Made by a program: the position numbers and the translations under genes | Assembly: GCA_025449535.1 (NCBI GenBank) | Contig: JANWJF010000001.1 | Span: 421,136 to 485,135 of the forward strand | Length of the DNA: 64,000 nt | Source of the DNA: Candidatus Saccharimonadia bacterium | GTDB lineage: Bacteria; Patescibacteriota; SICC01 | Direction: 5' to 3' | The notes under the pieces: generated by a model | Told to the model about the DNA's origin: nothing | The model's input: only the letters and a program-made list of their open reading frames with translations | Database searches by the model: none | In this document: positions 27,645 to 43,112 of the stretch, piece by piece | Layout of the letters: the number at the start of each line of letters is the position of its first letter | Numbering within the stretch: the first letter of the stretch is position 1

Positions 27645-28703
27645 TTACTTGGGGAAGTCTATGTGCCAATGCTGGGCACCCGGGCAGACTTCGTAATTGT
27701 TCGTGCCTCCGTATTTCTTGGCGACTTCGTGAATTTTTTCGATATTCCGGGTACTGCACGTGAGGTCCAAGGCCTCGCCGCGGTAATGCGGGGATTCCGC
27801 ACTAGAGTGGCACTTATCGGTGATGTTGCTGATGTCCACGTAGGCTCCTTGGTTCGATGCCTCGATGATCGCCTTGAGGATGTCCGGGTTGACGTCGACG
27901 TTCTTCGGGCCGCCATGTGCACGGCACGTCATCTGGAATTCCTGGCCGTTGGCAGCGCGCTTCAGCTGCGCCATCGTGTCGCCGGTGTCGCTCTTGTAGC
28001 TCTGGCCGATCTTGCCGCCCTTAATCAGGGAAAGGACCTGCTGAGCAAGCTCCTGGACGTTGCCGGATACCGTGCCTCCGCCGGCACCGGGACTGCAGTC
28101 GGCCCCTCTGGTAGTCGACCCCCCGCCTCCGGTGGCGGGGACGTGATGCTTCTCAGCATGCTTCATGACGTCGTCGGCGTAGCCGTACCCGGCAGCCTTT
28201 TTCGTCGGTCCGGCGTTGTATGAAGCCAGCGCGTCCCGCCAGTCGTTCTTCGCATTGAATCCCTTGAGGATCTTGGCGGCAGCGTAGATCGCGTCGGCTT
28301 CGTTCATGATGTCCTTCTTGCCGTCGCCGTCGCCGTCCACGCCATAGGTGTCCCAGTAATCCGAGCCGATGGCCATCGGCCCGACGTAGGGCCCGCTGGT
28401 GGCGACGTTCGTACTGAAGCTGGTCTCGTGGAAGTGGATGCCTGCCAGCATCGACGGTCCCTTGTCGCCAAGGCCGAACTGGGCGGCCGCCCCTTGGTAG
28501 AACGGGATGAACTTGCCTGGAATCGGACCAATGTTGCCTGGTCCGGTAGAACCGTCCCCAGTGTCGGCCACGGTGGACGTGTCGTCAGGGCCGCAGTCCG
28601 CGAGACCGCCGCCGCCGATCGCGAGCGCGAACGCAGCGATGATCAACGGGACGATCAGGACGATCCCCGCTACGAGCAGCCCGATGCCGATCCACTTACT
28701 CAT
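27645..28703 (-). CDS. membrane-anchored bifunctional cell-wall hydrolase (lytic transglycosylase-like N-domain + LAS/M15-type zinc peptidase C-domain)
   Basis: N-terminal TM. GIHFHETSF...YNAG SLT-like block. C-terminal SPHYRGEALD ... QHWH (H-x6-D ... H-x-H zinc ligands). Confidence 0.55.
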   Translation of the reverse strand: MSKWIGIGLLVAGIVLIVPLIIAAFALAIGGGGLADCGPDDTSTVADTGDGSTGPGNIGPIPGKFIPFYQGAAAQFGLGDKGPSMLAGIHFHETSFSTNVATSGPYVGPMAIGSDYWDTYGVDGDGDGKKDIMNEADAIYAAAKILKGFNAKNDWRDALASYNAGPTKKAAGYGYADDVMKHAEKHHVPATGGGGSTTRGADCSPGAGGGTVSGNVQELAQQVLSLIKGGKIGQSYKSDTGDTMAQLKRAANGQEFQMTCRAHGGPKNVDVNPDILKAIIEASNQGAYVDISNITDKCHSSAESPHYRGEALDLTCSTRNIEKIHEVAKKYGGTNNYEVCPGAQHWHIDFPK

Positions 28704-28758
28704 GGGATCCCTCGTGGCGCGTCTTGCTTGCTGTGTTCGGTGAAATCATGATGCGTCC

Positions 28759-29196
28759 TCAGTACACGTGCGGGGCTTCCGTTTTCATTTTCAGTACATA
28801 CGTGCCCGGGGCTTGCCCTACGTCTTTCAGCCAGCCCTCGATGAACGGACGCTGTTTCCGGATCGCGAACTGCTTGTCCTGTCCCGGCTTCACATAGACC
28901 GTCGCGTCGATCACGAGTTTGCCGTCCCGCCTACCCGAACCCAGGAGTTCCACTCGCCAGTACAGGGTCAGTTTCGGGACCCGGCTGACCACGGGGTTCT
29001 CCTCCTCGGCATCCTCGACGCTTTCCTTGTACACCTTGGTCGCCAGCGGCGACACGCTCGGAGTACCCGAAGGAGACATGGACGGGACGGGGCCAGGCCG
29101 GTTTCCGGAATCCCGTGGCGTCATCGCCACGCCGACCGCGATGGCTGTCGCGAGCGCTCCGCAGGCCAAGACCGTGATGATTACTTTCTTGCGCAT
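28759..29196 (-). CDS. hypothetical secreted/lipoprotein-like protein
   Basis: Signal peptide with VLAC motif. No known domain. Confidence 0.4.
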   Translation of the reverse strand: MRKKVIITVLACGALATAIAVGVAMTPRDSGNRPGPVPSMSPSGTPSVSPLATKVYKESVEDAEEENPVVSRVPKLTLYWRVELLGSGRRDGKLVIDATVYVKPGQDKQFAIRKQRPFIEGWLKDVGQAPGTYVLKMKTEAPHVY

Positions 29197-29197
29197 G

Positions 29198-29827
29198 TCA
29201 TTGCTTTGAAACCCCGATATGCACGTGGTCGTAGTGGTCCCCGCCCTCGTCGGTCCGGTAGATCAACTGGAACCGATAGCCGCCTTTGGTGCCGTTCACC
29301 AGGCCGCTTCCGTTCCACTGGATGCCGAAGCAGCTCGCGAGGTCTTCCGCCAGTTGGTCCATTTCCGGCGTGGGGCTGGTGCCGTTGGAAATGTCCGCCG
29401 CCCAAGCCACCTCCGGCGGTCCCTTGTGCTCGGAAGTGTTACCCGACGTGGTCTGCTGCGAGTGGGCGGCGTTCGCCGCTTCGACCGACTCGGGGGTTAC
29501 ATCCTCGAACGCGATTTCGTGCGCTATCGGCAGGGCGACGTCGTCGATGATGTCCTTGGGGGTGCCGGTAAGCTCGCCGCAACTGGCGGATCCTCCCGAT
29601 CCGACCTGCCCGGCGCTTCCCCCGGGTGACGCTCCGGATACCCCGACGATGATCACGCCGATGACCAAGACGAGCACGAGGACGACCAGCGCCACGACCG
29701 CGGCAATCCAGACCGCCGGGTTCGCCAGGAACATCGCCGCTCGGCCAGCTTTTGCCGCTTGTTCGACCTGCTTGACCGCTTTGGCGGCCTGGGCCGCCTG
29801 TCCGGTCCTGCTTTGGTCGTCAGCCAT
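29198..29827 (-). CDS. hypothetical membrane-anchored protein
   Basis: Single TM after a charged N-terminus. Gly/Ser-rich linker. Confidence 0.4.
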   Translation of the reverse strand: MADDQSRTGQAAQAAKAVKQVEQAAKAGRAAMFLANPAVWIAAVVALVVLVLVLVIGVIIVGVSGASPGGSAGQVGSGGSASCGELTGTPKDIIDDVALPIAHEIAFEDVTPESVEAANAAHSQQTTSGNTSEHKGPPEVAWAADISNGTSPTPEMDQLAEDLASCFGIQWNGSGLVNGTKGGYRFQLIYRTDEGGDHYDHVHIGVSKQ

Positions 29828-29829
29828 GG

Positions 29830-30351
29830 TTACTCCTTACCAAATTCAATGGCATTGATCTCGGTGGCGCTCCAACGTTCACCGAAGCGTCGCCAGGCGA
29901 TCTTCAGCTTCTGCTCGAATACCTTGCCGGTCTTCAGGTCCGTCGAGCGGAGCCGGACGACCGCCGTGGCCGTTCCTTCCGCCGAGCTTCCCGTCACCCG
30001 GGTGTCGAGCGCCTCGCTCCGCACGGGTTGCAGGAACGGCGCCCGGTCGGCGTACCGAAGCGTACTCCGGTAGTCCTCGAAGGCCTGCTTCGTCATGTAG
30101 GGACGGACGCTGTCCACGTACACTTGGTCGACGCGTTCGAAACTCCGGTATTTCACGGCGAACTCGGTGGAAAGTTCGGTGAGCAGTCGGCGGTCTTGCT
30201 CAACCAACGGGTCTGCGGTAGGTGACGGGGAAGCGGAAAGGACCGCTGGCGTCGGCTTCGCGCCGTCCGGGACGGACAGTACCAGCACGGTAATGCCAGC
30301 GACACAGACGGCCGCGGCTACGATCAGCAGGATCTTGAGTTTCTTGTTCAT
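29830..30351 (-). CDS. membrane-anchored protein, possible VirB8/PrgL-like T4SS component
   Basis: N-terminal TM plus about 140-aa extracytoplasmic domain. Position after the hydrolase mirrors prgK-prgL. Confidence 0.3.
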   Translation of the reverse strand: MNKKLKILLIVAAAVCVAGITVLVLSVPDGAKPTPAVLSASPSPTADPLVEQDRRLLTELSTEFAVKYRSFERVDQVYVDSVRPYMTKQAFEDYRSTLRYADRAPFLQPVRSEALDTRVTGSSAEGTATAVVRLRSTDLKTGKVFEQKLKIAWRRFGERWSATEINAIEFGKE

Positions 30352-30983
30352 GTGCCCCCTCCGACGTCTCCGGCGAACCGCTTAGCCTGGAGCGTGATCG
30401 CGTAGACGTACCAGTCAGCATGATTATACGAGTAGATGCCGTCACGCCAATTCTTAGGGGCCCCGCCGGATATGAGATGGTTGGCGGCGGCGCAGGCGCC
30501 GTTCTCGACTGAGTAGGCGGGCCAGCTCTTTGATCCCGGCTCGTTACAACCGACGACGAAGGCCTCCCAGCTGCTCTGCAGGAACTGCCACGGTCCGCCG
30601 GCGCCGGAGCTGTTGACCGTGCTGTACCCCGTATCGGCGAACCCCGACTCGATACTATGGATGCCGGCCAGGATGGAAGGCCCGCAGCCGCCCAGCTTCT
30701 TCTTTTCGGAAACGGTACTGTAAATGGGAATGAATTTCTGAGGGACCTTTTCGGTATGCCCGGACACGTACGCGGTGCCTTCCGCCTTGCCAGCCGCGGC
30801 GTCCGAGAGAATCTGGTCGAAATCACAGTCCCCGGAGAGTGACCCACCTCCGGCGGCCGGGGCAGTGCCGCCTGCCCCGCCCAGCGCCGCCGCCATGAAC
30901 AGGACCGGCACCATCAGTACCGCCGCGGCGACCACCGCGCTCCCCACGATCAGCAAGGGCATCCCGCTGGATGACTGCGCCAC
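30348..30983 (-). CDS. lytic transglycosylase-like protein (VirB1/PrgK-like)
   Basis: ILAGIHSIESGF...YSYNHADWYV paralogous to the N-domain of the 27645..28703 product. Likely GTG start 1 nt after the VirB4 stop, with a GGAAGGGA SD; the longest ORF extends to 31019. Confidence 0.55.
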   Translation of the reverse strand: MAQSSSGMPLLIVGSAVVAAAVLMVPVLFMAAALGGAGGTAPAAGGGSLSGDCDFDQILSDAAAGKAEGTAYVSGHTEKVPQKFIPIYSTVSEKKKLGGCGPSILAGIHSIESGFADTGYSTVNSSGAGGPWQFLQSSWEAFVVGCNEPGSKSWPAYSVENGACAAANHLISGGAPKNWRDGIYSYNHADWYVYAITLQAKRFAGDVGGGT

Positions 30984-30984
30984 G

Positions 30985-33021
30985 TTAGTTCCCTTCCGGC
31001 CGGAGGCCTGCGTTCTCAAGCTCCTCGAGCTGCTGCGGGTTGGTGGTGATGATCTGGTCCTCGGCGTAGCTCGCCAGGACCTTGATTGCCACGTGGTTCA
31101 GTCCGGCGAAGAACAAGCCCTCGCCGACCTCGCTCTCCAGGAGCAGCATCTTCTCGCCCTCGGTGAGGTTGAAGGTGTCGGCCACCAGGTCGATCGAGGC
31201 CGGGGACTGCCGGAGCAGCATCTGCATCGAGCTGTTGGTGACGATCGCCTTGCCGTAACTGGAGTTCAGGAAGTCCTCGACGTCCTGGGTGACGGTCGTC
31301 AGGCCGAGGTAGTACTTCCGGGCCCGCTTGGCCAGCGAGAACAGGAACTTGGCCGAGTCCTCGTGACCCATCATCTGCCAGGCCTCGTCGATCACCATCA
31401 GGCGTTTCTTGCGGTCCTTCCGGATCAGGTTCCAGATGTGATTGAGGATCATGTACATCGCGATCGGGCGGAGAGTGTCCTCCAGGTCGCGGATCGAGAA
31501 GGTCAGGAAGTGGTTGTCCAGCGAGACGTTCGACGGCTTGTTGAGCAATCCGGAGAACGAGCCAGTGACGTACTTCTGGAGCTTGGCCGCGACTCCCTCG
31601 GCGCCCTGCATGTTGTTGAGCACCTCGTGGAAGTCGGTCAGCGTCGGCGGCTGGTTCTTGTGGGTGGTCACGTCCGTGGTGATGTCACGCAGCGCGTACG
31701 TCTCCATCAGCGCGCGGTCGACCAGCGCGTCCTGCTCGGGGGCGAGCGAGCCGCACATCAGGGCCACCAAACCGTGCAGGTTGGTGATCGCGCTACGCAG
31801 GATCGCCTCGCCGTCCGTCTCGTCGCCGATGGCCGGCGGCAGGTCGAACGGGTTGATGTTGTGTTCCGAGCTCAGCGAGACGTTCACGTACCGGCCCCCG
31901 ACCGCGGCGGTCAGCGCCTGGTATTCATTCTCGGGGTCGATCACGATCGCCTCGGTGCCGAACATCAGCGAACGCAGCAGCTCCAGCTTCACGGCGTAGG
32001 ACTTGCCGCCGCCGGACTTGGCGAACATCACCATGTTGGCGTTCTCCAGCGTGAACCGGTCGAAGAGGATCAAGCCGTTGTTGTGCCGGTTGATGCCGTA
32101 GAGGATGCCGTCCGACTGGGTCAGCTCGGAGCTGGTGAACGGGAACGTGGTCGAGAGCGACTCGGTGTCCATGTTCCGGGTCACCCGGAGCTCGTCCGTA
32201 CCAGCGGGCAGCGAGCTGTTGAAGCCCTGCTCCATCTGGAGGTTGGCGTACTTGGTGAAGACGAGCTTCCCGTTCAGCGTCGACTCGAGCTGCTTGGTCA
32301 GCTTGTCCAGTTCGTCCTTCGACTTCGCGTACAACGTGAAGTAGAGGGCGTACTGGAAGAACTTCTCCTCACCGCGCTGCAGCCGGTCCCGCAGCTCCTC
32401 GGCGTCGCCGAGCGCGGTCTCCAGTTCCGGATCGCGGACCTTGCCCTTCTCGCGGTTGAGCTGCCAGGCGGATTCCATCTGGCCGACCTTCTTCCGGAGG
32501 TTCTGCATGACCTCCTTGGTCTCGACCGGGTAGATGAACATCGAGACGTCCATCGTCACGTCGTAGTTGATGATCGGGTTCAGCCAGTTCGTGTTGATGT
32601 AGCGCGGGTAGGTGAAGACGAACAGCGTCCGCACGAAGTAGTCCTCCAGCTTGAGGTAGTTGAAGGTAATCTCCATCGCGGCCGGCGCGATCAGGTCCTT
32701 GATCGTCGAGATGCCTTCCTCGTAGACGCGCTTGGCCTCCTCGAACTGCTTGGTCTGCACCTGCTGCTGGGAACGCTCCTCCGTGCCTTGCTTGTTCGAG
32801 CGCCAGGCGAAGAACTTCTCCAGGAACCCTTGCTTTGGCATGGCGACGGTCTGGGCTTGGGGCTGGACCTGTCCGATCGGCTGGGAGCCTTCGTACGAAC
32901 CTTCGCCGATCGTCGGGGCCTGGGGCGCGGCCGGCTGCGGTCCGGCCGGTGCCGGCGCGCCTTGCGGCGTCATCGGGTCCATCCCGCCCTGCGGTTGTCC
33001 TTGCGGATAGGCGTCAGGCAT
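30985..33021 (-). CDS. virB4: VirB4/TrbE/CagE-family T4SS ATPase (C-terminal ATPase part)
   Basis: Walker A KSGGGKSY, Walker B VIDEAWQ. P/Q-rich N-terminus. Confidence 0.85.
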   Translation of the reverse strand: MPDAYPQGQPQGGMDPMTPQGAPAPAGPQPAAPQAPTIGEGSYEGSQPIGQVQPQAQTVAMPKQGFLEKFFAWRSNKQGTEERSQQQVQTKQFEEAKRVYEEGISTIKDLIAPAAMEITFNYLKLEDYFVRTLFVFTYPRYINTNWLNPIINYDVTMDVSMFIYPVETKEVMQNLRKKVGQMESAWQLNREKGKVRDPELETALGDAEELRDRLQRGEEKFFQYALYFTLYAKSKDELDKLTKQLESTLNGKLVFTKYANLQMEQGFNSSLPAGTDELRVTRNMDTESLSTTFPFTSSELTQSDGILYGINRHNNGLILFDRFTLENANMVMFAKSGGGKSYAVKLELLRSLMFGTEAIVIDPENEYQALTAAVGGRYVNVSLSSEHNINPFDLPPAIGDETDGEAILRSAITNLHGLVALMCGSLAPEQDALVDRALMETYALRDITTDVTTHKNQPPTLTDFHEVLNNMQGAEGVAAKLQKYVTGSFSGLLNKPSNVSLDNHFLTFSIRDLEDTLRPIAMYMILNHIWNLIRKDRKKRLMVIDEAWQMMGHEDSAKFLFSLAKRARKYYLGLTTVTQDVEDFLNSSYGKAIVTNSSMQMLLRQSPASIDLVADTFNLTEGEKMLLLESEVGEGLFFAGLNHVAIKVLASYAEDQIITTNPQQLEELENAGLRPEGN

Positions 33022-33751
33022 CCTGTCCTCCCTGGGTTTCGGGCTCCTTGCCCGAGATGGTCGCCGCGGTCAGATCGTCGACGTTCACGAGCTTCTGCTT
33101 GGTGGCTGTCTGGGGGTTGTAGACGCTGTAGAAGAGCTCGACCAGTTCCTCCGAGTTGAGCTGGACCGCCCGGACCCCGATCGCGCCGAGCCCGGACGCG
33201 GCCCCTTCTGCGCGCTGCAGGAGCTGGCCGCGGAAGTTCTGGAAGTCCGCCTCGCGTTTGGCTGACTCGGCCTTGGGGTTCGGTTTGGTGGCGAACAACG
33301 ACTTGATGCCCTTCACCTGTTGCTCGACCCCAGGCGGGTAGAATGGCACCACCACATAGAACCGCTTGTCCATGATGTTGGTGACGGAGATCAGCCGCTT
33401 GATGAACTCGCCGTATTCGAGGGTCTGGAGCTTCACCAGTTCCAGTGTCTGGGATTCCGCGCGTTTGCTGAGCTTATCGAGGTAGTAATCCAGGTCCAGC
33501 CGTCGGGAGTGGATCAGGATCTGGATCGGGAAGTTCAGGGAGTTGAGGAACCGCTGGTAGGCGAAGATCATCGCGTCCTGTTCCTCTCCCGACTTCAGGG
33601 CGAAGTTCACGGCGCTGGTCATCAGCACGACCCGGAGCGAGCCGTCCTTGAGCACCACCACGCCGTCCTTGATCTCGGCGATATTCAGGTAGGCCTGCGT
33701 GGACGCAGCCTCCTGCTTCCTCTGCTGTTCCTGTTGTTTCTTGTCCGCCAT
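33014..33751 (-). CDS. VirB4 N-terminal domain protein (split VirB4)
   Basis: VLKDGSLRVVLMTSAVNFALKSGEEQDAMIFAYQRFLNSL resembles the VirB4 N-domain. ATG 1 nt after the prgI-like stop with an AGGGAG SD. 8-nt overlap with the ATPase ORF. Confidence 0.55.
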   Translation of the reverse strand: MADKKQQEQQRKQEAASTQAYLNIAEIKDGVVVLKDGSLRVVLMTSAVNFALKSGEEQDAMIFAYQRFLNSLNFPIQILIHSRRLDLDYYLDKLSKRAESQTLELVKLQTLEYGEFIKRLISVTNIMDKRFYVVVPFYPPGVEQQVKGIKSLFATKPNPKAESAKREADFQNFRGQLLQRAEGAASGLGAIGVRAVQLNSEELVELFYSVYNPQTATKQKLVNVDDLTAATISGKEPETQGGQDA

Positions 33752-33752
33752 G

Positions 33753-34382
33753 TCAGGCTCCCTGGGTCCGTTGCGGTTGCCGTTCGGATCCCTTGAGCAC
33801 CCGGTCAAGGTTGGCGCTGGCCCGGTCCGAACCGGTACCGGTGTCCTCCCGGGCGAGGATGTCCGCCGGCTCTTCCTCGTGGGCCATGAAGATGTTCAGG
33901 TGGGGTTTGGCCTGGGCGTCGCTGGTGACCCGCCCGGCCGTCTCCGGGTCGTCCTCATCGCTCCAGCCGCGGGCGTCGATCACGTGCGCCAGCTTGGCGA
34001 GCTTCGAACGGACCTCGTCGTCGCTGGGTTCGTCACGGACCACCTTCGGCGGCGCCTGGCGGTCTTCCAGCTTGATCTCGGCCAGCGTCGGCAGGCGCTT
34101 CCAGGCCCGCCGGGAAGGGCGGGTGGAGAAGCTCACGAACGAGGTGATGAACTTCAAGAACGGTTGGTCATACGGCTTTATGAACACGAACGCGGTCACG
34201 AACGTCCAGGTGAAGAAGGCGGTCACGAAGAAGGCCGCCTGGGAGACGGTGTAGACCGTGTTGAAGCTTACGAACGTGACCAAGCCGCCAGCCAGCAGGT
34301 AGAGGAACTGCTTGAGCGTGAACGGCCCGATGATCTTGTCCTCGAGCTCGACGTTCTGCGGGATCTTGTAGCTGGAAGCCAT
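33753..34382 (-). CDS. PrgI/VirB3-like T4SS membrane protein
   Basis: YKIPQNVELEDKIIGPFTLKQFLYL N-terminus and two TM helices, as in PrgI. Confidence 0.55.
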   Translation of the reverse strand: MASSYKIPQNVELEDKIIGPFTLKQFLYLLAGGLVTFVSFNTVYTVSQAAFFVTAFFTWTFVTAFVFIKPYDQPFLKFITSFVSFSTRPSRRAWKRLPTLAEIKLEDRQAPPKVVRDEPSDDEVRSKLAKLAHVIDARGWSDEDDPETAGRVTSDAQAKPHLNIFMAHEEEPADILAREDTGTGSDRASANLDRVLKGSERQPQRTQGA

Positions 34383-34461: not shown

Positions 34462-36906
34462 CTAGAGGCCCAACTGGGTGCGCAGGTGGTCCAGCTCGCT
34501 GTCGACCTCGTCGTAGGCCTGCGGCCCGCCGGCAAGCGGCACGAAGCCCTCGCGTTTGCCTTCCTTCATGCCCTGCAGGATGCGCAGGCGTTGCAGGCCG
34601 CCCTGCTGGTCGAAGGTGGACGCGATGGCCAGGCGCTTCGACTCCACCGCCACGTTCCGGTGGTTGAGGTTCATGTTCTGGCCCAGCGCCGTGGCGTTGG
34701 CCTGGTCACGCAGGGCTTGCCGCCAGACCTGCTGCCCGGCTCCTCCGGCGTCTATCGCGTGCAGCGGCGCCCCGTTCCGGGCATACTCCATCGAGCTGGC
34801 CATGATCTTGCGCATGCCGTCGCCGTCGCGGTTCTTCACGGCGATGCCCAGCTCGGTCCGGTCGAAGTCGCCGGCCTGGAGCGTGCCGCCGCGGTAGCTC
34901 TTCTTGACGCTGGCCAGGAGCGGATCGAGGTCAGCCATGTTCTTGTGGTAACCGGTGCGGGCGTACTTGGGCAGCATCTCCCAGTCGAACCAGCCCTGTT
35001 GGGACAGGCCTTTCACGGCGGCCAACGACCCGGTCCGGCTCTCCGCGAACCCTTGCTCGAGCGAGCTCAGCCGCAACGGTTCGCCGTCGAGCTCGGTCTT
35101 GCCCATGTCGGCGGCCACGATCCGGCGCATGGCGCCTTCGTCGATGCCCTGGTTCTGCATGTCCTTGAGTTCCTTGTCGACCAGCCGCTCACGGAATGAC
35201 TGGGCCTGGGTGGAGTCGAATCCGGTCAGCGAGCGTCCGACCCCGGCCACGCCGGCGTCCTCCAGCGCCTCGTAGAGGTCCGTACCGGCGCCCGCGGCGC
35301 GCAGCTGGGCCCGTTCTTCCTGACCTTCGGTGCGCTGCTTCAGGAAGGCGCGTCCGGTCCGGGCAGCCTCACCGACGGTCATGCCGCGGCCCAGCGGGAC
35401 CAGGCCGACCGCGCCGAGCCCGCCCTTACCGGCGCCTTTGCCGAGACGCGAGCCTTGCCGGCCGGCGAGCTGGGCGATTCGTCCGCCCATGCCGATGGGC
35501 ACCATCACTGCAGCGATGACGATGCCGGCGAAGAAGATCGCCTGCAGGATCGCGGAGCCGCCCGGGTCCCCGGTATCGGAACCTTCCAGGGTGGACCGCA
35601 GCATCAGCGAACCCGCGAAGAGTAGCAACATCGCGATCGGGGCCATGTAGACCCACTGGATCCAGTTCTTGAGCAGGTTGCGCGACTCACCCCGGGTCAG
35701 CGGTAGCACCAGGAACAGGAAGACCACCGGCGAGAGGATCGCCAGGACCCAGATCACGATGATCCGGACGACCAGGAAGAAGAGCAGGATGATCAGCGCG
35801 ACCAGGATGATCAGCGAGGCGAGCAGCAGCACTACCGCCTCGCCGAACCCGTCGACGAGCCCGTCCGAGTAGCCCGACCCGACCCCGGCCGCCTGTTGGA
35901 TGAAGTCATGAGACCGCTCCAGGAACGGTTGGCTGAGCACGGCGGCGGTGTTCGCCATGATGCTCGCGAACAGGAAGCTGAAGTTCACGCCGATCACCGA
36001 GAACACCAGCAGTGGCAGCAACGAGCGGATGTTGTACTTCTGCGGCTCCAACCGGAGGATCGACATGAAGGCCATCGTCGAGAGGACCAGGATGAACAGG
36101 ACGTTCACCAGGTCGCGGACCACCATCCAGACGTCGGCCACGCCTTGGTTGTCCATCAGCGTCCCGGCGTCCAGGGCCCATTCCACCGCCGAGGTCACGC
36201 TGCCGATCAGGCTGGTGATGATCTCGGCCATCTTCTCCAGCGCTTGCGAGAACGGGTCGCTGGCCGCCCGGTCGATCAGGCTGCTCTGGTTGGTGCTCGT
36301 CTGCACGTGTTCGCCCTTCTCGGCCCACTGCAAACCCTTGTCGTTGAGCAACTTGTCCAAGAAGTCCTTCGCGAACTCGGAACTGTCGAAGCTGTTCAGC
36401 TGGGCCACCAGGTTGTCGGGGACGGCGGCGTCGCCCGGGTCGCCCCAGACCAGCGCCGCGATCTTGGCGCCGTCGGTATTGATCCGGTAGATGACCTTCA
36501 GCGGCGTCTGGATTGGCGTGTCGCCGCGGTACGGCGAGAACGTGAAGTCCCAGTTGTCGAGACCGGTGCCCCGGTCCTCGTGGTGGACCGCCGTCAGCCG
36601 GAACTCGACCGCGCCCGGCGTGCCGGCGGTGCAGGTGGAGACGGTCTGCTCGCAGACGAAGACTGAGACCTTGTCGGGGTCCGCCTTGGTAGGGTCCTTC
36701 GGCGGCGGCGAAGGCCGCCAAGCGAACTTAGGCGCGTCGTTCCCGTCGATCTTGAAAGCCTCCCGCACATCGTCGGGTCCCTGGAATCCGTTCACTTGTG
36801 CCGCGCTGACCGCCTCGGCCTGCGGTGCGATGGCGAAGGATGCCGTCATGGCCAGGACGGCCAGTCCGGATTTCAATAATGTGAGTAAACGGTTCCGTTC
36901 GATCAT
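34462..36906 (-). CDS. VirB6/PrgH-like polytopic T4SS membrane protein (paralog B)
   Basis: Signal/TM, large extracytoplasmic N-domain, 5-7 TM core, Gly-rich tail. Start at the internal ATG (MIERNRLL); the ORF extends to 37011. Confidence 0.5.
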   Translation of the reverse strand: MIERNRLLTLLKSGLAVLAMTASFAIAPQAEAVSAAQVNGFQGPDDVREAFKIDGNDAPKFAWRPSPPPKDPTKADPDKVSVFVCEQTVSTCTAGTPGAVEFRLTAVHHEDRGTGLDNWDFTFSPYRGDTPIQTPLKVIYRINTDGAKIAALVWGDPGDAAVPDNLVAQLNSFDSSEFAKDFLDKLLNDKGLQWAEKGEHVQTSTNQSSLIDRAASDPFSQALEKMAEIITSLIGSVTSAVEWALDAGTLMDNQGVADVWMVVRDLVNVLFILVLSTMAFMSILRLEPQKYNIRSLLPLLVFSVIGVNFSFLFASIMANTAAVLSQPFLERSHDFIQQAAGVGSGYSDGLVDGFGEAVVLLLASLIILVALIILLFFLVVRIIVIWVLAILSPVVFLFLVLPLTRGESRNLLKNWIQWVYMAPIAMLLLFAGSLMLRSTLEGSDTGDPGGSAILQAIFFAGIVIAAVMVPIGMGGRIAQLAGRQGSRLGKGAGKGGLGAVGLVPLGRGMTVGEAARTGRAFLKQRTEGQEERAQLRAAGAGTDLYEALEDAGVAGVGRSLTGFDSTQAQSFRERLVDKELKDMQNQGIDEGAMRRIVAADMGKTELDGEPLRLSSLEQGFAESRTGSLAAVKGLSQQGWFDWEMLPKYARTGYHKNMADLDPLLASVKKSYRGGTLQAGDFDRTELGIAVKNRDGDGMRKIMASSMEYARNGAPLHAIDAGGAGQQVWRQALRDQANATALGQNMNLNHRNVAVESKRLAIASTFDQQGGLQRLRILQGMKEGKREGFVPLAGGPQAYDEVDSELDHLRTQLGL

Positions 36907-37007
36907 TTTCGTGCAGTGCTCATTGGATTGATTACGCCTCTTCGGTGCGGTCACGCAGTTTGAAAAGGAACGCCCCCTGCGTCCTTTCCGCGTGCGCCCC
37001 CGAACAC

Positions 37008-37039
37008 CCAAAAAGCGCTCAATTATGACCTAATTGAGC
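37008..37039 (-). terminator. putative intrinsic terminator after the VirB6-like paralog A
   Basis: Perfect 9-bp stem GCTCAATTA/TAATTGAGC with a 5-nt loop. Followed on the minus strand by GCUUUUUGGG. Confidence 0.45.
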
Positions 37040-37066
37040 GGACAGGTCAAGTGGGGGGTCGATTTG

Positions 37067-39661
37067 TCAGATACCCCGTATGTCGTCCGAATCCGGTGCG
37101 TCTTTGGTTCGACGGCCTTCCGGAAGGACGACGCCGCCCGAGCTGGTTCCCGAAGTTCTCGACCCTCCTGTCCCACTGCCGCTTCCGCCGCCAGAGCCTC
37201 TGGAGGAGTAGTCTTCTCCGGCGTGAGACGGATTGGCAATCAGCGTATCCCACATCGGTCCGTGCTTGTCGCTTAGGCTATCAATAGTTTTTGTGGGGAT
37301 CTTGCCGTTGTCGTAAGCTTTTCGCAACGCTTGGACACGCGCCGGTGAATTTTGCTCCAATATACCTTCCACGGCACCGACGGACAGGTTGTCCCGTAAG
37401 AGATTAGCTCGATTCGGATCTTTCGTAGTGGCCAAGTCAGTAAGGACTTCCGGGCTGAATTGCGTGACGTTTCTGCTGCCAAGGTCCTGAATTTCGCGCT
37501 GTTGCGCTGCCAGCGGTTTCTTAGCGAAGTTGGCGGTCTCGTTGGCCAACTGCTCACCCTTGCGCCGTTCCGCGAAGGCGCCGGTGCGGATGTCGTGAGC
37601 GAGTCCCAGGGTGTCGTGCATCTTCGAGTTCGGTTGGAATTGCCCCTGCATCCGTTCCAGTTCGTCGGTGTCGAACTGATCGGCGTAAAGCTGAGCTTCC
37701 TTTTCCTGGGCGGTGCTCATCTGTGCAGCGGCCTCAGCCCCGGCTTCGCCGCCAAGCCGGCCGCCGGTAGCCGCGGACAAGCGCTTGTTGAACCCGGACC
37801 GGATACCGGCGCCGCGCAACGCCTGTTTGCGCTCGGCGCGCTGCTTGCGCTGATCGTTGGCGGCGGCCAGTCCGGATTTGCGAGCAGCTACCCCACCGAG
37901 TCCCTTGCCGGCTCCGAGTCCGGTCCGACCGGTCTTCTTCGCCGCACTGGCGGCCCGTCCCATCACTTCGCCGCCGAGTTTCAGCGGAATCATCACCGCG
38001 GCGATCAAGGCGCCGACGAAAAAGGCGATCTTAAGCAGGAAGTCTGGCCCGTTGATGTCTTGGTTTTTCGATCCGACGTTTGAAACAATCTCCGCCGCGA
38101 CAAACAGCAGCATGAACGCGACGGGAGCCATGAAGATCCACTTCATCGCGTTCTTCCACCATGATGACGCCAAGGAGCGTGTAAAAGGGAGGATCATGAA
38201 CAGGAAGACAAACGGCGAGAGCGCGGTGAGCAGCCAGATCATCAGTATCCGGACGACGAGGAAGATGAACAGAATCAGCATCGCGATGGCGACCACGATT
38301 ACCATGAGGACGGCGATGACGACCTGCCCGATGCCGGACTGGGGATCGATGATGCTGCCGTCCACCGGTGGGTTCGCCAACAGGCCGAACGCCTTTGACG
38401 CGAACGGCTGTGCGATGATGAAAGCGACGTTGGTCAGGATCTGCACCAGCACGAAGCTGAAGTTCACCGCGATTACCCCGAAGATCAGGCGCGGGAGCAA
38501 GGCCCTGATCCCGTAGCGGTCGGTATCGATGCGCAGGATGTTCGACAGGGCGACTATGCAGAGAATCAGAATGAATATTACGTTTACGAAGTCACGGATG
38601 GTCTTCCACGCTTCGACCAGGCCCTGGTTGTCGGTGAGGGTCCCGACGTCGGTCACGTTCAGCAGGGCACGTTTCACGAAGTCGAAGAAGTCACTGATCG
38701 CGACCTTCAACGCTTCCAAGGCCTTTTGCATGGCCTGCGCGAAGAAGTCGTGGTCGCTAGTGCAGCGGTTGATGCCATTGAACTTCTCGGCGACTTCGTC
38801 AATCGTCTCCTGGTCATCCGCCTGGTCGGTCAGTTCCACCCCGTTGAAGTACTTTTCCTCGTCGAGGCCGCCCGACCATTCGATGTCCGAAGCCCAGGCA
38901 TCTTCCGCGAACGTGCCGGCGCAACTCGCCGTGAACGAGAAGTGCATCTCGTCGGAGCCGAACGCATCGTTGCCGGAAGAGAACCGACCATTGTTCGCCT
39001 TGAGCGAGACGTTGAGCGCCGGGTTGAATTCGTTCCGGAAGACATAAATGATGTTCTCGTCGTTACCGCCGCCGCCGAATGGCGTGTTCTCCTGGACGTC
39101 GCCGGTGGAGTTGTTGTGGATGTCGGTCAGCACGAACCGGACCAGGTGGACGTCGTCGTGACCGACCGCGGTCCCCTCACCGTTCGGGTTGTGAATCAGG
39201 TGCTTGCTGTGGACGTAAAAGTACGGGTTGCCGTCGTACTTCGAACCGATGGAGGCGTTCCCGCGTGCCCGGAAGTCGGAAGGTTCGCCATCCTGCCCGG
39301 CGTTGATATCCAGCTTGCTGATTCCGCCGGGGTCGCCCTCGTTCGACTCACCGAAGAACGCGAGTTGAGCTTCCTTCCGGCTCCCGATCGCGTTCATCGC
39401 CCGCTTGACCCCTTCCCAACGCTCCTGTTCCTTGTTGTCTTCCTGTATCTGATCCGTCTCGTCCCCGATCATCGCGAAGCACTCCTCCTCTTCGGGAGTC
39501 AGTTCCACAGGTGGGAGGTGTTGCATGTCCTCAAAAGGGTACTTGTCCTTGCACTCCTGGAGGGTAATCGCGTATGCCGGCTGGATGGCCGGGCCGACCA
39601 TGGTCGCGAGGAAGGCGGCGGCCAGGAAAGTGGAAATCAACCGCTTGATCCGCTTGTTCAT
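37067..39661 (-). CDS. VirB6/PrgH-like polytopic T4SS membrane protein (paralog A)
   Basis: Signal peptide MNKRIKRLISTFLAAAFLATMVGPAIQPAYA. TM core closely similar to paralog B. C-terminal Gly/Ser-rich region. Confidence 0.5.
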   Translation of the reverse strand: MNKRIKRLISTFLAAAFLATMVGPAIQPAYAITLQECKDKYPFEDMQHLPPVELTPEEEECFAMIGDETDQIQEDNKEQERWEGVKRAMNAIGSRKEAQLAFFGESNEGDPGGISKLDINAGQDGEPSDFRARGNASIGSKYDGNPYFYVHSKHLIHNPNGEGTAVGHDDVHLVRFVLTDIHNNSTGDVQENTPFGGGGNDENIIYVFRNEFNPALNVSLKANNGRFSSGNDAFGSDEMHFSFTASCAGTFAEDAWASDIEWSGGLDEEKYFNGVELTDQADDQETIDEVAEKFNGINRCTSDHDFFAQAMQKALEALKVAISDFFDFVKRALLNVTDVGTLTDNQGLVEAWKTIRDFVNVIFILILCIVALSNILRIDTDRYGIRALLPRLIFGVIAVNFSFVLVQILTNVAFIIAQPFASKAFGLLANPPVDGSIIDPQSGIGQVVIAVLMVIVVAIAMLILFIFLVVRILMIWLLTALSPFVFLFMILPFTRSLASSWWKNAMKWIFMAPVAFMLLFVAAEIVSNVGSKNQDINGPDFLLKIAFFVGALIAAVMIPLKLGGEVMGRAASAAKKTGRTGLGAGKGLGGVAARKSGLAAANDQRKQRAERKQALRGAGIRSGFNKRLSAATGGRLGGEAGAEAAAQMSTAQEKEAQLYADQFDTDELERMQGQFQPNSKMHDTLGLAHDIRTGAFAERRKGEQLANETANFAKKPLAAQQREIQDLGSRNVTQFSPEVLTDLATTKDPNRANLLRDNLSVGAVEGILEQNSPARVQALRKAYDNGKIPTKTIDSLSDKHGPMWDTLIANPSHAGEDYSSRGSGGGSGSGTGGSRTSGTSSGGVVLPEGRRTKDAPDSDDIRGI

Positions 39662-41010
39662 CGCAGATCCTCGATCCGTTGCCGCGCTCGTTTCGCCACC
39701 CGCCTGAAGAGTCCGGGTTGCCGCTTCTGTTTCTTCCCAAGCATTTTCCGGAACCGCCGCTTCTTCGCGCGCTGCAGGAGCGTATCGGCGCTTTTCTCGA
39801 TACCTTTGCTGACGGCTCCGCCGCTGCCGAACACCAACGCGCGGGCGCCTTCGTACAAGCCGGCGATCTTCGCTCCCATCACTCCGGCTCCGATCAGGAC
39901 GCCGGCGACCGGCGGGGCGATTACCAGGGAAGCGATCAGGGCGATGCCGTACGCCTTGGCGAAGCGGCCAGTCAAACGCTTCTTCCAGGTCTGCAGCCGG
40001 TCACGGCCGTACTCGACGACTTCTCCGGCTGCATCGGACGGCTGACGTTCGCCCGTCGGGTAGCCGTTCTTGATCAGGTTCTGCATCCATTCGATGGCTT
40101 GCTGGAAGCGTTCCTGTCGGCTTCGGTACTGGTCCGTCAACTCCTCGACCCGCTGCTCGATCGCGTCGAACAGTTTCTCGCGCATTTCTTGCTTCAACTC
40201 CGGTGTCTGCGAGGACTCGGCGAAGGCTTGCTCGAACTCCTTCGCGAGCTCGACGGCCTCGTCCGCCCGGGCCTGCACGTTCTCGCCAGCATGGTGCCGT
40301 TCCAAGAAGTCGACCCACCGGCTCGCCTCGGTGCGGAGTACTGTCCGCTCGTCTTCAGGCTCCTTGGAAAGCGAATCCTCAAGCGATTCCCGGAGTTCGC
40401 CGGGTCGCCGGGCTTCCGCCACGGCCTGCTCGAGGTACTCCTTGGGCGCGCTGGCCTCGAGGTTCGCGATCGCCTCCTGCTCTGCCTTGTCGATGTCGCC
40501 CTTGCTCCATTCGGCGCCGTACGTCTTGGACTGCTCGATGTTCGCACGGACGTCGGCCAGCTCGGCCTCTCGGTAGAGTTCCTCCGCCCGGACCATCAGA
40601 CCGCCCGCCTCGTTATAAGCCGTCCGTACGATCTGCTTCTTCTGTTCACGGGACACCCGGTGGTACACCCGTTCGTATTCATGCGGACTCTCCTCGAAGT
40701 CGGTCGGATCCGGTTTGAGCAAGGCCTCGAGGTCGACCCCGGCGTCCTGCAGCTCCCGTTCCCGGTCGCGCGAGAAGCGCAGGTCCCCCAGGGCCACCGG
40801 CGCCCGGTTGTCCGGACCGTACGAGACCTCCATGAACTGCTTGCCGTCGTACGTGCCGAGGTACCCGGTGATCTCCACCTGGTCCTTGCTCCCGGCTTCC
40901 CAGACTTCCCGCAGGGCGGCCGGACCTTTCAGGGCCTCGACGGTCGCTTTGTCGAAGTGCGGGTCCTGGTCGACGCGCGGTTCGAAGTCTGGTGTGTGTT
41001 TTTCACTCAT
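39658..41010 (-). CDS. hypothetical coiled-coil protein with C-terminal TM segment (T4SS-associated)
   Basis: Start at MSEKHTPDF. Glu/Arg-rich helical region, TM IALIASLVIAPPVAGVLIGAGVMG, basic tail. ATGA overlap with the downstream gene. Confidence 0.45.
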   Translation of the reverse strand: MSEKHTPDFEPRVDQDPHFDKATVEALKGPAALREVWEAGSKDQVEITGYLGTYDGKQFMEVSYGPDNRAPVALGDLRFSRDRERELQDAGVDLEALLKPDPTDFEESPHEYERVYHRVSREQKKQIVRTAYNEAGGLMVRAEELYREAELADVRANIEQSKTYGAEWSKGDIDKAEQEAIANLEASAPKEYLEQAVAEARRPGELRESLEDSLSKEPEDERTVLRTEASRWVDFLERHHAGENVQARADEAVELAKEFEQAFAESSQTPELKQEMREKLFDAIEQRVEELTDQYRSRQERFQQAIEWMQNLIKNGYPTGERQPSDAAGEVVEYGRDRLQTWKKRLTGRFAKAYGIALIASLVIAPPVAGVLIGAGVMGAKIAGLYEGARALVFGSGGAVSKGIEKSADTLLQRAKKRRFRKMLGKKQKRQPGLFRRVAKRARQRIEDLR

Positions 41011-41034
41011 GTTCGGTTTGCGAAAAATTACCCA

Positions 41035-41063
41035 ACCATAGCAGAAAACAAGCCAAATGTCAA
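41035..41063 (-). promoter_or_regulatory. putative sigma70-type promoter for the 474-aa gene / VirB6-A unit
   Basis: Minus strand: TTGACA (41063-41058), 17 nt, TATGGT (41040-41035). Confidence 0.4.
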
Positions 41064-41080
41064 GTATCAGGCGGGAAACC

Positions 41081-41107
41081 AAAAAGCGTCCTCGAGGAAC
41101 GCTTTTT
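41081..41107. terminator. putative bidirectional intrinsic terminator downstream of the pilin genes
   Basis: AAAAAGCGTCCtcgaGGAACGCTTTTT: GC stem flanked by an A-run and a T-run. Confidence 0.45.
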
Positions 41108-41130
41108 GGATTCAGCGGACGTGCGGTCGA

Positions 41131-41514
41131 CTAGACGTCGAACCGGCCACGGACGCCCAGGTAGTCCTGGATCAGCCGCGTGAGCACGAACGCGATGAAG
41201 ATGACAATCAAACCGAGCACCGCGTACAGGATGGTCTTCCGGGCGGCGTCGACCTGTTCGGCGTTGCCGGTGGAGACCACGTAGCGGAAGCCGCCGATGA
41301 TCAGGAAGAGCACGGCGATGGCGCCGGCGAACAGCAGCAGCGCGTCGATGACCCGGGACAGGATCTCGCCGAAGTCAGTCTGGTTGGTCGGAGACTCGAT
41401 GTCCGGCTTGATGTTGGTCGGGGCTTGCGCCGCGGCGACCGCGTTCTTGGCCATGACCAGCGACAGCGCCGCGCCGTAACCGACACGGGATAGCGTTTGC
41501 TTCACTTTTTGCAT
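41131..41514 (-). CDS. TrbC/VirB2-like T4SS pilin
   Basis: Signal peptide plus two hydrophobic helices flanking a GxRY...GN.E.V..A+ loop. Confidence 0.5.
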   Translation of the reverse strand: MQKVKQTLSRVGYGAALSLVMAKNAVAAAQAPTNIKPDIESPTNQTDFGEILSRVIDALLLFAGAIAVLFLIIGGFRYVVSTGNAEQVDAARKTILYAVLGLIVIFIAFVLTRLIQDYLGVRGRFDV

Positions 41515-41532
41515 ATGTGTTTCACCTCCTTC

Positions 41533-42183
41533 CTATACGGTTACCACTCTACCAATGGTCACTACGATGGCATAGGAAAGGAACACGACGGCCAGGCCGA
41601 TCACGGAGTAGAGCAGGCCGCGCCGGGCCGCCTGGACCTGGTCCTGGTTGCCTTGCGAGGTCGCGTACCGGTAGCCGTTGATGATGATGAAGAGCACGGC
41701 GACCGAGGCGCTTAACAGCAGCAGCGCGTCGGCGATGCGCGGCAGGATGCTCTGCGGGTCCTGCGGCGCGCCGCTGATCGCCCCGACGATGCCGGGCGCG
41801 TCGCTGATCTTCTGCCGTGAACGGAGCACGCCTTGGACCAACAGGACGATCGCGTACGAGCAGATCGTCAGGATGAAGCCGGCGATCGACCAGGTCAGGC
41901 CCTGCTTGGCCTTCTCGACCTTCTCCGGGTTGCCGGCCGAGAAGATGTATTGGTAGCCGTTGACGACGACGAAGAGTACGGCGACCGAGGCCGCGAAGAG
42001 CAGTCCGAAGCGAATGATGTTCACCAGTATCCCGACCACGCCGCCGAGGTCTGAGGCGCGCGGGTTCTCGGGAATCTGGAAGAAGCCGAGCGCGGCGTGC
42101 GCGGACTCCGGTGCGACCAGGATGCCGATCGCGGCGAGGACGCCGAGGCCGAGCGCGAATTGTCTGAGGGAACGCATGTTCAT
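41533..42183 (-). CDS. tandem double VirB2-like pilin
   Basis: Two internal repeats, AVLFVVVNGYQYIFSAGNPEKVEKAKQGL and AVLFIIINGYRYATSQGNQDQVQAARRGL, each flanked by hydrophobic helices. Confidence 0.5.
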   Translation of the reverse strand: MNMRSLRQFALGLGVLAAIGILVAPESAHAALGFFQIPENPRASDLGGVVGILVNIIRFGLLFAASVAVLFVVVNGYQYIFSAGNPEKVEKAKQGLTWSIAGFILTICSYAIVLLVQGVLRSRQKISDAPGIVGAISGAPQDPQSILPRIADALLLLSASVAVLFIIINGYRYATSQGNQDQVQAARRGLLYSVIGLAVVFLSYAIVVTIGRVVTV

Positions 42184-42542
42184 AATCCCGAGTTAAATCC
42201 CAGCGTGCGCGAGACCAGGATGATCAACGTGACGGAGACGAGCGAGACCACGAACCCGAACACCGCGTAGAGCAGGCTCTTCTTGGCCTTCTCGACGAGT
42301 TCCTGGTTGCCCTGGGAGACCATGTATCGGTAGCCGGAGATGATCAGATAGAGCAGCGCCACTGTCGGCAGGAAGACGATCAGGATGTTGAAGATCGCGC
42401 TGACCGGTTCGCCGAGGTTGCCGAACCCGGACAGCGAGTGGATCTCCCGGGGGTTCTTGTCCGGCTGCGGCAGGGCGGCCTGGGCACCGGCCGGAACGGC
42501 CAGCGAGAGGAGCAGCAGCGAGTTGGCGATCCGTCTAATCAT
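42180..42542 (-). CDS. TrbC/VirB2-like T4SS pilin
   Basis: Signal peptide; ISGYRYMVSQGNQELVEKAKKSLLYAV motif. Confidence 0.5.
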   Translation of the reverse strand: MIRRIANSLLLLSLAVPAGAQAALPQPDKNPREIHSLSGFGNLGEPVSAIFNILIVFLPTVALLYLIISGYRYMVSQGNQELVEKAKKSLLYAVFGFVVSLVSVTLIILVSRTLGFNSGL

Positions 42543-43070
42543 TCAGCCTCCGGGTTTCGAGAAGTCGATGTCTCCGCAGCCGGGCTCGTTCTTCTCGCAG
42601 GGCTCGCTGACCGTCCGCGGGTTGATCGTGTTCAGGATCAACGCTGCCAGGATCAGGAGCGACAGGCCGATCAGCGTCTTCTCGACGATGTCCTTGGCGT
42701 TGGAGATCTTCTCGGGATCGCCATAGCTGGCCATGTAGGTGTAGCCGGCGTAGATCAGGGAGATCACCGACAGCAGCCCGCCGATGAAGGCGACCCAGAG
42801 GTACACCGCGTTGACGTATTGGATCACCGAGGTCTTCTTTACCTCAGTGCCGGTGACCGGGTCGATGTTCGAGCCGCTGGTGTCGAGGCCGTTCTTATCC
42901 GTGTCTTGCTTGCCCTTCTTCTGCTTGGTCTTGCCGCCACTGACGTCCTTGGCGTCGTCGACGCCCTGCTTCGTCTCCGCGGCCTTCGCCATCGGAGCGT
43001 CCACCGTGAAGTGCGGACCCACCGGCGTTATCGCGACCGCGGTCGCGACGCCCAATCCGAGCGCCGCCAT
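42543..43070 (-). CDS. VirB2-like pilin with extended Lys-rich N-region and Cys-containing tail
   Basis: IYAGYTYMASYGDPEKISNAKDIVEKTLIGL motif. Start at MAALGL, preceded by an AGGAGG SD; the longer ORF extends to 43103. Confidence 0.45.
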   Translation of the reverse strand: MAALGLGVATAVAITPVGPHFTVDAPMAKAAETKQGVDDAKDVSGGKTKQKKGKQDTDKNGLDTSGSNIDPVTGTEVKKTSVIQYVNAVYLWVAFIGGLLSVISLIYAGYTYMASYGDPEKISNAKDIVEKTLIGLSLLILAALILNTINPRTVSEPCEKNEPGCGDIDFSKPGG

Positions 43071-43112
43071 GGTCAACCTCCTGATTGTCGTTCCGGTTCG
43101 CATAAGGGGGCT

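Follow-up and report, generated by a model that had tools for sequence, protein, structure and literature searches.

Type IV secretion systems (T4SSs) of the Patescibacteria are known from the literature of 2020-2025. Candidatus Southlakia epibionticum ML1 needs its cluster SEML1_0006-0019 for epibiotic growth: in transposon sequencing all of its genes, also those of the pilins, scored as essential except the NTF2-like SEML1_0012 (PMC10633639). After dnaA, dnaN and recF, the ML1 genes follow on the opposite strand in the order lysozyme-like protein, Hedgehog/DD-peptidase-domain protein, VirB4, a 293-aa protein, PrgI, a VirB6-like giant, an NTF2-like protein matched to TraM of pIP501 (non-essential), a second VirB6 giant and six PF18895 pilins, and a coupling protein or relaxase was not recognised in the cluster (Wang et al. 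2023, PMC10633639). A survey detected VirB4 in 2,417 of 3,035 Patescibacteria genomes as a clade nested in the mating-pair-formation class MPF-FATA, with TrsD, PrgI, VirB6 and VirB2 arrays near virB4 and the cluster frequently close to dnaA/dnaN (Quinonero-Coronel et al. 2025, PMC12102498). Only 103 of these genomes yielded a relaxase, and VirD4-like proteins were frequent (5,713 homologs in 2,918 genomes) with only 148 of them near virB4; the t4cp homolog of ML1 is not essential, and the authors of the survey favour the hypothesis that DNA or other macromolecules are imported (PMC12102498). A 2025 review regards the Patescibacteria systems as unique among monoderm T4SSs (PMC12857230), and tubular structures seen between another cultivated member and its host were suggested by the authors to be, maybe, T4SS pili (bioRxiv 10.64898/2026.06.21.733656). 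Here we describe a T4SS locus at positions 27645-43103 of a 64,000-nucleotide stretch (contig JANWJF010000001.1, positions 421,136 to 485,135) from the genome of a Candidatus Saccharimonadia bacterium; the whole stretch is called the window below.

We consider it very likely that this locus encodes a functional T4SS of the Patescibacteria clade, that is, a monoderm system derived from MPF-FATA which has lost its link to conjugation, has VirB2-like pilins and supports a host-dependent lifestyle. Gene identities, completeness, conservation and chromosomal context were all observed directly. The locus has a VirB4 of this clade, a TrsD-like gene beside virB4, PrgI/VirB3 and VirB6 proteins, a PF18895 pilin array and a position near dnaA/dnaN, and no relaxase or coupling protein was found in the window. 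Its 15 open reading frames (ORFs) lie on the minus strand, are all intact and tightly packed, and show overlapping stop and start codons. Transcription runs from four pilins through a 450-aa protein, VirB6b, VirB6a, PrgI, the TrsD-like protein and VirB4 to five single-pass membrane proteins. Probable starts were corrected to 33751 (TrsD-like), 30962 (SLT-like), 41010 (450-aa tail-anchored protein) and 36906 (VirB6a). In transcription order the genes are:

42543-43103, minus strand: VirB2-like pilin 1, 186 aa (PF18895 T4SS_pilin 1.2e-8; NF045849 9e-6)
42180-42542, minus strand: VirB2-like pilin 2, 120 aa (PF18895 3.6e-8; TrbC 3.8e-3)
41533-42183, minus strand: tandem double VirB2-like pilin, 216 aa (PF18895 2.1e-20 in two stretches)
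41131-41514, minus strand: VirB2-like pilin 4, 127 aa (PF18895 5.4e-10; NF045849 5.9e-9)
39658-41010, minus strand: variable helical protein rich in charged residues, 450 aa from ATG 41010 (no family)
37067-39661, minus strand: extended VirB6/TrbL paralog b, 864 aa (TrbL 2.8e-7, 31 bits, cut-off 25.9; transmembrane protein Mbov_0396 of an integrative and conjugative element (ICE) 3.4e-4)
34462-36906, minus strand: extended VirB6/TrbL paralog a, 814 aa from ATG 36906 (TrbL 3e-4, below cut-off)
33753-34382, minus strand: PrgI/VirB3-like membrane protein, 209 aa (PF12666 PrgI 1.8e-8, 35.2 bits, cut-off 27)
33014-33751, minus strand: TrsD/TraC-like protein, 245 aa from ATG 33751 (NF045975, Mbov_0397 VirB4, 4.6e-7; CD1110 positions 11-114, 1.3e-4; TrsD 1.7e-3)
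30985-33021, minus strand: VirB4 ATPase, 678 aa (NF045971 CD1110, 385 bits, cut-off 325; P-loop_TraG 7e-25; AAA_10 1.7e-10)
30348-30962, minus strand: candidate SLT-like lytic transglycosylase, membrane-anchored, in the VirB1/PrgK position (SLT E 0.005 for the domain alone)
29830-30351, minus strand: VirB8/PrgL-like bitopic protein, 173 aa (N-terminal transmembrane helix, linker and NTF2-like domain, assigned by structure)
29198-29827, minus strand: membrane-anchored 209-aa protein (motif SEHKG...AADIS...HYDHVHIG, H...D...HxH)
28759-29196, minus strand: small bitopic protein, 145 aa (transmembrane helix, Pro-rich linker and an alpha/beta domain of about 80 aa with unassigned fold)
27645-28703, minus strand: two-domain cell-wall hydrolase, membrane-anchored, 352 aa (SLT_2 26.4 bits, cut-off 24.3; SLT 22.7 bits, cut-off 21.3)

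The window was compared with three related loci, named L001, L081 and L082, the last having a duplicate, L083. VirB4 aligned to the CD1110 profile at positions 179-733, therefore its N-terminal region is encoded separately. Besides TrsD, the only matches of the TrsD-like protein upstream were to the N-terminal region of VirB4 models, and its orthologs are annotated with PF26593 TraC-like. The end of its gene shares 8 nt with the start of virB4, likewise in L001. Walker A (AKSGGGKS) and Walker B (LMVIDEAW) of VirB4 were read from the sequence and are intact. The 120 best-listed VirB4 matches had 58-92% identity, and all those bearing a source name were Patescibacteria or Candidate Phyla Radiation (CPR). 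The homologs at 79-92% form a small group, and the next tier (about 58-67%) is labelled Kazan, Berkelbacteria or 'Patescibacteria group' where named. The best plasmid-borne relatives, from Bacillota or Actinomycetota, reached at most 38% identity. Although the nearest genome is labelled 'Candidatus Saccharibacteria', VirB4 was only about 50-56% identical to that of Saccharimonadia-type metagenome-assembled genomes (labelled Saccharibacteria or Nanosyncoccus), and in a crude neighbour-joining tree (unbootstrapped, no outgroups) its clade lay nearer to Kazan/Berkelbacteria-labelled sequences than to Nanosyncoccus-type Saccharimonadia.

The two VirB6 genes encode extended proteins. VirB6b consists of a signal sequence, an N-terminal domain of about 320 aa which is probably extracellular, a polytopic core and a hydrophilic C-terminal domain of about 290 aa. 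VirB6a matched VirB6b orthologs at 31-32% identity and its own orthologs at 39-46%, which identifies it as a clear paralog, and its L081 ortholog carries PF19590 TrbL_3. At the DNA level, conservation of the VirB6 genes with relatives was confined to the membrane core. The pilin array consists of four genes with five domains, and every gene passed the PF18895 cut-off. Pilin 1 has a long N-terminal extension, two hydrophobic segments and a Cys-containing C-terminal tail. The identity to the L001 orthologs was 75% for pilin 1, 64% for pilin 2 (with a dN/dS of 0.36) and 74% for pilin 4. The double pilin matched NF045849 in two stretches with 42.4 bits (cut-off 40), and double-length orthologs were present in L001 (208 aa), L081 (219 aa) and L082 (215 aa). 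Beside the pilins, the 39658-41010 protein had no family above threshold in Pfam or NCBIfam and no signal peptide, with a single hydrophobic segment at about residues 350-386. Its gene is missing from L001, and unrelated genes of 276 aa (L081) and 582 aa (L082) occupy its position.

The frame of the locus was shared among L001, L081 and L082/L083, in the order pilins, variable gene or none, two VirB6, PrgI, TraC-like, VirB4, a cassette of membrane-anchored proteins, a cyclic di-AMP (c-di-AMP) receptor gene, dciA, recF and dnaN, and dnaA was additionally observed in the same arrangement for L001 and L081. Compared with L001, the DNA identity was 88% for virB4 and 75% for the flanking housekeeping block, while the protein identity was 92% for VirB4, 91% for DnaN, 79% for the TrsD-like protein, 75% for PrgI, 61-75% for the pilins and 43-46% for VirB6; four locus genes had no detectable match in L001. 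The ratio of nonsynonymous to synonymous substitution rates (dN/dS) was below 1 in all cases, with 0.13 for VirB4, 0.21-0.25 for the TrsD-like protein and PrgI (0.25 for PrgI itself), 0.25-0.41 for the pilins and 0.37-0.53 for VirB6, the last being rough values since dS is near saturation in these most divergent genes. Since all ORFs are intact and dN/dS is below 1, the system is intact and under purifying selection. The G+C content at third codon positions (GC3) of the core genes was 0.87-0.93, the level of dnaN, GroEL and RpoD. The lower GC3 of the variable genes (0.77-0.81) is no clear sign of foreign origin, since some housekeeping genes are equally low (RarA 0.72).

The five membrane-anchored proteins after VirB4 form the cassette. 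The 30348-30962 protein has a sub-threshold SLT match and an N-terminal hydrophobic segment, and is 38% identical to a protein of L081 (11958-12545) annotated SLT/SLT_2 in Pfam. The 29830-30351 protein shows the features of the VirB8 family, as it is bitopic, combines an N-terminal transmembrane helix with a C-terminal NTF2-like domain and lies inside a T4SS cluster; an identical protein is encoded in a metagenome-assembled genome labelled 'Patescibacteria group bacterium'. Profile iteration over 83 loci with its domain alone returned homologs only in L081 and L082/L083; the same iteration including the transmembrane helix and linker drifted into unrelated bitopic proteins and was discarded. 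The 29198-29827 protein had no match in Pfam, NCBIfam or PDB sequences and no homolog in L001, L081 or L082; judged by its motif, it may be a degenerate LAS-type metallopeptidase. In the 27645-28703 protein, residues 200-352 had sub-threshold matches (Peptidase_M15_3 E 0.014, HH_signal E 0.17, Sonic hedgehog E 0.95), and the LAS motif H-x6-D...H-x-H was read from the sequence as SPHYRGEALD...HWHID, so this domain is a probable M15/LAS peptidase. It is 66% identical to the C-terminal domain of a protein of L001 (14294-15355) whose N-terminal half is unrelated.

These assignments largely agree with a preliminary description of the window, made from the sequence alone. The 15 minus-strand ORFs were all present, and the split VirB4, the PrgI/VirB3-like protein, the two VirB6 giants (one above the TrbL cut-off, the other below it and recognised as its paralog) and the four pilin genes were confirmed. 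One of three small membrane proteins had been suspected to resemble VirB8/PrgL, which holds for 29830-30351, and the proposed prgH-L-like order of VirB6, VirB3, VirB4, cell-wall hydrolase and VirB8-like genes was found. For the supposed SLT+M15 hydrolase, SLT was above the Pfam cut-off and M15 was retained as a sub-threshold match with a motif only; the second SLT call was weak.

The composition of the cassette differed between the window and its relatives, whose VirB4 is 79-92% identical. In the window it comprises the SLT-like, VirB8-like, unassigned 209-aa, small alpha/beta and SLT + LAS proteins. L081 (11958-15501) has SLT, a VirB8-like protein, a 453-aa protein, Peptidase_M15_4 and the small alpha/beta protein, and L082 (11904-17487) has Amidase_2, a VirB8-like protein, a 565-aa protein (weak M74), a second VirB8-like protein, SLT and the small alpha/beta protein. 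L001 (11872-15355) has a 210-aa protein, a PD40 beta-propeller, Peptidase_M74, a GDSL-like/LAS fusion and the small alpha/beta protein; in the fusion, an N-terminal half with weak, sub-threshold GDSL-like matches is joined to the LAS domain known from the window. This variable periphery looks like the result of domain and gene replacement, beyond drift alone. Among these three relatives, a conserved engine (VirB4, TrsD-like, PrgI and pilins) can thus be told from a periphery of fast turnover (cassette, VirB6 outer domains and one variable gene). Tentatively, and with more doubt than confidence, we propose that the cassette between virB4 and the c-di-AMP receptor gene represents rapidly exchanged wall enzymes which, together with the VirB6 outer domains and the variable gene upstream of VirB6b, would make up a host-range module setting which host walls can be breached, and not a VirB1 for housekeeping of the own wall. 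The partition into engine and periphery points to the parts that are worth testing for host specificity.

A scan of about 55 ORFs of the window, which took in only part of the smaller ORFs outside the locus, gave no family of coupling proteins, relaxases, VirB11 or integrases. Thus neither the VirD4/TcpA coupling protein nor the relaxase with oriT that characterise a conjugative MPF-FATA system is present in any scanned ORF. An integrated conjugative element was considered for the locus and rejected, since no integrase or recombinase, no att-like direct repeats, no insertion boundary and no adjacent tRNA were found (the tRNAs are at least 12 kb away), the composition is housekeeping-like, and the position is kept in relatives. 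On one side the locus adjoins jag, yidC, dnaA, dnaN, recF and dciA at 20.9-27.3 kb. The origin was placed from gene content and GC skew only: the cumulative skew is lowest at about 23-31 kb, and a scan for DnaA boxes gave one near-match, in the dnaA-dnaN spacer, which is below chance expectation. The genes outside the locus that bear on its interpretation are:

22881-24470: dnaA (family scan)
27272-27622, minus strand: c-di-AMP receptor gene, DarA/PstA-like (PF06153 1.3e-32)
459-1073, plus strand: ComFC/ComF-family gene (TIGR00201 5e-24; CxxC...CxxC zinc finger and the phosphoribosyltransferase motif VLLVDDVYTTGAT)

The preliminary description had claimed a lack of VirD4, relaxase, VirB11, integrase and repeat boundary, which holds for the scanned ORFs and the 64-kb window, and a chromosome-like composition, which is borne out by GC3 values equal to those of housekeeping genes. 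Its placement of the locus in the origin region stands, with the correction that the c-di-AMP receptor gene sits between dciA and the locus. The ComFC homolog that it noted 27 kb away was recovered. Its overall reading of a chromosomal, non-conjugative, monoderm-type T4SS, possibly an episymbiont contact apparatus, fits both the sequence evidence and the literature, where such systems were already published.

As an alternative, the locus could be a T4SS for DNA uptake, like ComB of Helicobacter or the archaeal Ced system, taking in DNA from the host or the environment as a source of nucleotides or for transformation. It would agree with the lack of a relaxase and a coupling protein in the window, with comFC, with a partial match of VirB4 to CedB (5.7e-12), with the import of DNA or macromolecules favoured in the survey and with the co-localisation of comF, recG and radA with the T4SS in class ABY1 (PMC12102498). 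However, comFC lies 27 kb off behind an unrelated polysaccharide cluster, and the scanned ORFs of the window include no other recognised competence gene. There was no match to a VirB9 or VirB10 family in the locus, and the diderm VirB7/VirB9/VirB10 core of ComB-type systems was not found there. In S. epibionticum, deletion of comEC abolished competence and left the cells viable, yet the T4SS is essential (PMC12857230), so the essential role of the T4SS differs from ComEC-dependent DNA uptake. The ComB-like alternative raised in the preliminary description is therefore disfavoured, and we regard DNA uptake as unlikely.

Still less probable, in our judgement, is that the locus serves as the mating-pair-formation module of a conjugative system whose coupling protein, relaxase and oriT are encoded elsewhere in the genome. 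VirB4 belongs to the conjugative family CD1110, VirD4-like genes are frequent in Patescibacteria and usually far from virB4 (PMC12102498), and the absence of coupling protein and relaxase covers the 64-kb window. Against this stand the scarcity of relaxases and the non-essential t4cp homolog of ML1 (PMC12102498), the fixed site beside dnaA-recF-dciA among relatives with 75%-identical flanks, which is unlike a mobile element, and the lack of an integrase, att repeat or tRNA boundary. A decaying, non-functional remnant of an integrated conjugative element would account for the missing conjugation genes and for the several genes without family assignment, but is hardly credible given 15 intact and tightly spaced ORFs with overlapping stop and start codons, dN/dS of 0.13-0.53, intact Walker motifs, virB4 DNA better conserved than the flanking housekeeping block (88% against 75%) and core-gene GC3 at the housekeeping level.

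We therefore return to a functional Patescibacteria-clade T4SS, against which several points weigh. The clade placement of VirB4 comes from best hits and the above tree, the role rests on a model species, S. epibionticum ML1, and not on this organism, and genes for a coupling protein or relaxase are possible at a distance beyond the 64-kb window. Furthermore, the M15 and second SLT calls are sub-threshold, three proteins (39658-41010, 29198-29827 and 28759-29196) have no family assignment, and the dN/dS values of VirB6 are rough. By homology to ML1, the machine may work as follows. Membrane-anchored lytic transglycosylases and peptidases would open the cell wall locally; the VirB8-like, PrgI/VirB3, TrsD-like and two extended VirB6 proteins would form a channel in the cytoplasmic membrane, energised by the VirB4 ATPase; and the products of the four pilin genes would build a surface filament or tube reaching the host bacterium. 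Macromolecules would thereby be moved between parasite and host, as effector export or import of host material, serving the epibiotic lifestyle. Few molecular handles exist on the way in which a very large, mostly uncultured bacterial branch lives off other microbes, and the Patescibacteria T4SS is among them.

For the expression of the locus, a promoter search gave six sigma-70-like sites, each of them on the strand of the genes (2.5 +/- 1.4 expected from shuffles). Five of them lie in gaps before the solute-binding protein gene described below (44523-44494), the first pilin (43141-43113), the 450-aa gene (41063-41035), VirB6a and PrgI (34458-34430). Together with a terminator-like hairpin 3' of VirB6b (37040-37016), these sites suggest about four transcription units. 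The c-di-AMP receptor gene is co-oriented with the T4SS genes, 22 nt past the last one, and its position and strand are kept in L001, L081 and L082. It is possibly co-transcribed with them, or may reflect a regulatory link of c-di-AMP to secretion, its membership in the system being unproven; no mention of it was seen in two T4SS papers (PMC12102498, PMC10633639). The gene on the other side of the locus is:

43145-44467, minus strand: orphan extracellular solute-binding protein (SBP_bac_8/1), 41 nt upstream of the first pilin

This gene is kept in L001, and no ABC permease or ATPase gene lies beside it. A link to the T4SS was considered and rejected, since homologs adjoin T4SS genes in 4 of 80 loci searched with tblastn (L001, L010, L020 and L021) in addition to the window, which is not above rough chance. 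Further on, the right flank encodes an NTP transferase, RarA, Hsp20, GroEL, pyruvate kinase, thioredoxin/DsbD, DnaG and RpoD.

The left 20 kb of the window, which has a G+C content of about 63%, are taken up by a surface-polysaccharide cluster and comFC. The cluster (1070-20648) contains three Wzy_C/O-antigen-ligase-like genes, six glycosyltransferases of GT1/GT4 and two of GT2, a Polysacc_synt flippase, two methyltransferases, an NTP transferase and a VanW/PG_binding_4 protein, and its G+C content of up to 0.70 exceeds the average of the window. Two consecutive long imperfect hairpins (20712-20810 and 20826-20928), located in the spacer that separates jag from a Wzy-like gene, have arms of 28-29 nt that are 79-82% complementary and loops of 43-45 nt, with no match in Rfam. 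The Rfam scan of the window returned two tRNAs only, at 55 and 56 kb. One is a tRNA-Ile (55046-55121, plus strand) with the anticodon TAT (UAU), which is uncommon in bacteria, where AUA is usually decoded by a lysidine-modified CAU tRNA. In a stretch of lower G+C content (0.575-0.60; 49900-53500 and 55344-57399), the ORFs 49936-50691, 50827-51258, 52182-52901, 53164-53496, 55344-56063 and 56374-57399 have no Pfam family; the last overlaps the tRNA-Ser (56401-56488) and may be no real gene.

Compared with known systems, H. pylori ComB is likewise chromosomal and functions without VirD4 or relaxase, but it is a diderm VirB-type system with VirB7/9/10 homologs, none of which were found here, and its VirB4 belongs to another lineage. 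The locus differs from the MPF-FATA systems Prg/Pcf of Enterococcus pCF10 and CTn2 of Clostridioides in that a coupling protein (PcfC), relaxase (PcfG) and adhesin are lacking, the VirB4 N-terminal region is in a separate gene, VirB2-like pilins are encoded and the locus is chromosomal and non-mobile. Mycoplasma ICEs are mobile elements with TraG/VirD4 and a DDE recombinase. The pilins, VirB6b and the TrsD-like/VirB4 pair matched the Mycoplasma ICE models Mbov_0395 (pilin-like), Mbov_0396 (transmembrane) and Mbov_0397 (VirB4), although only the double pilin passed the curated cut-off, and the gene order of the window follows the numbering of Mbov_0395-0397, assuming that consecutive locus tags stand for adjacent Mycoplasma genes. 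On these profile matches, part of the monoderm MPF-FATA lineage may have inherited VirB2-like pilins from its ancestor, in common with the pilin-like proteins of the Mycoplasma ICE and with no borrowing from diderms, contrary to the co-option idea (PMC12102498).

With the surveyed Patescibacteria systems, the locus shares the MPF-FATA-related VirB4, the TrsD homolog, PrgI/VirB3, VirB6, VirB2 arrays, the lack of a relaxase and the vicinity of dnaA/dnaN. VirB8 and VirB1 were rarely detected near virB4 in that survey (PMC12102498), whereas here a VirB8-fold gene and three to four putative wall hydrolases follow directly downstream. The closest likeness is to the ML1 cluster, which also lies directly past dnaA-dnaN-recF on the opposite strand, has hydrolases (lysozyme-like and with Hedgehog/DD-peptidase fold), VirB4, PrgI, two VirB6 giants, an NTF2-like protein, a PF18895 pilin array and a protein of about 290 aa beside VirB4, reported as a TrsD homologue (PMC12102498), and in which a coupling protein or relaxase is lacking as well. 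The differences concern VirB4, which here is about 50-56% identical to the Saccharimonadia-type and branches elsewhere in the crude tree, and the pilins, which are six genes on the other strand in ML1 and four genes (five domains), co-oriented and upstream, here. The NTF2-like gene of ML1 lies between the VirB6 genes, while the NTF2/VirB8-like gene here comes after the hydrolase that follows VirB4; the ML1 hydrolases have 640-1,100 aa, while those here are small proteins with a single transmembrane segment; and dciA and the c-di-AMP receptor gene are interposed here, at a G+C content of about 63%. The locus thus adds nothing categorically new to a known system. Its increments are a VirB8-fold gene in the prgL position, the turnover of the cassette among relatives and the likeness of the pilins, VirB6 and VirB4 to models from the Mycoplasma ICE; the example is clean, complete and high in GC, and its lineage is far from the cultivated Saccharibacteria.

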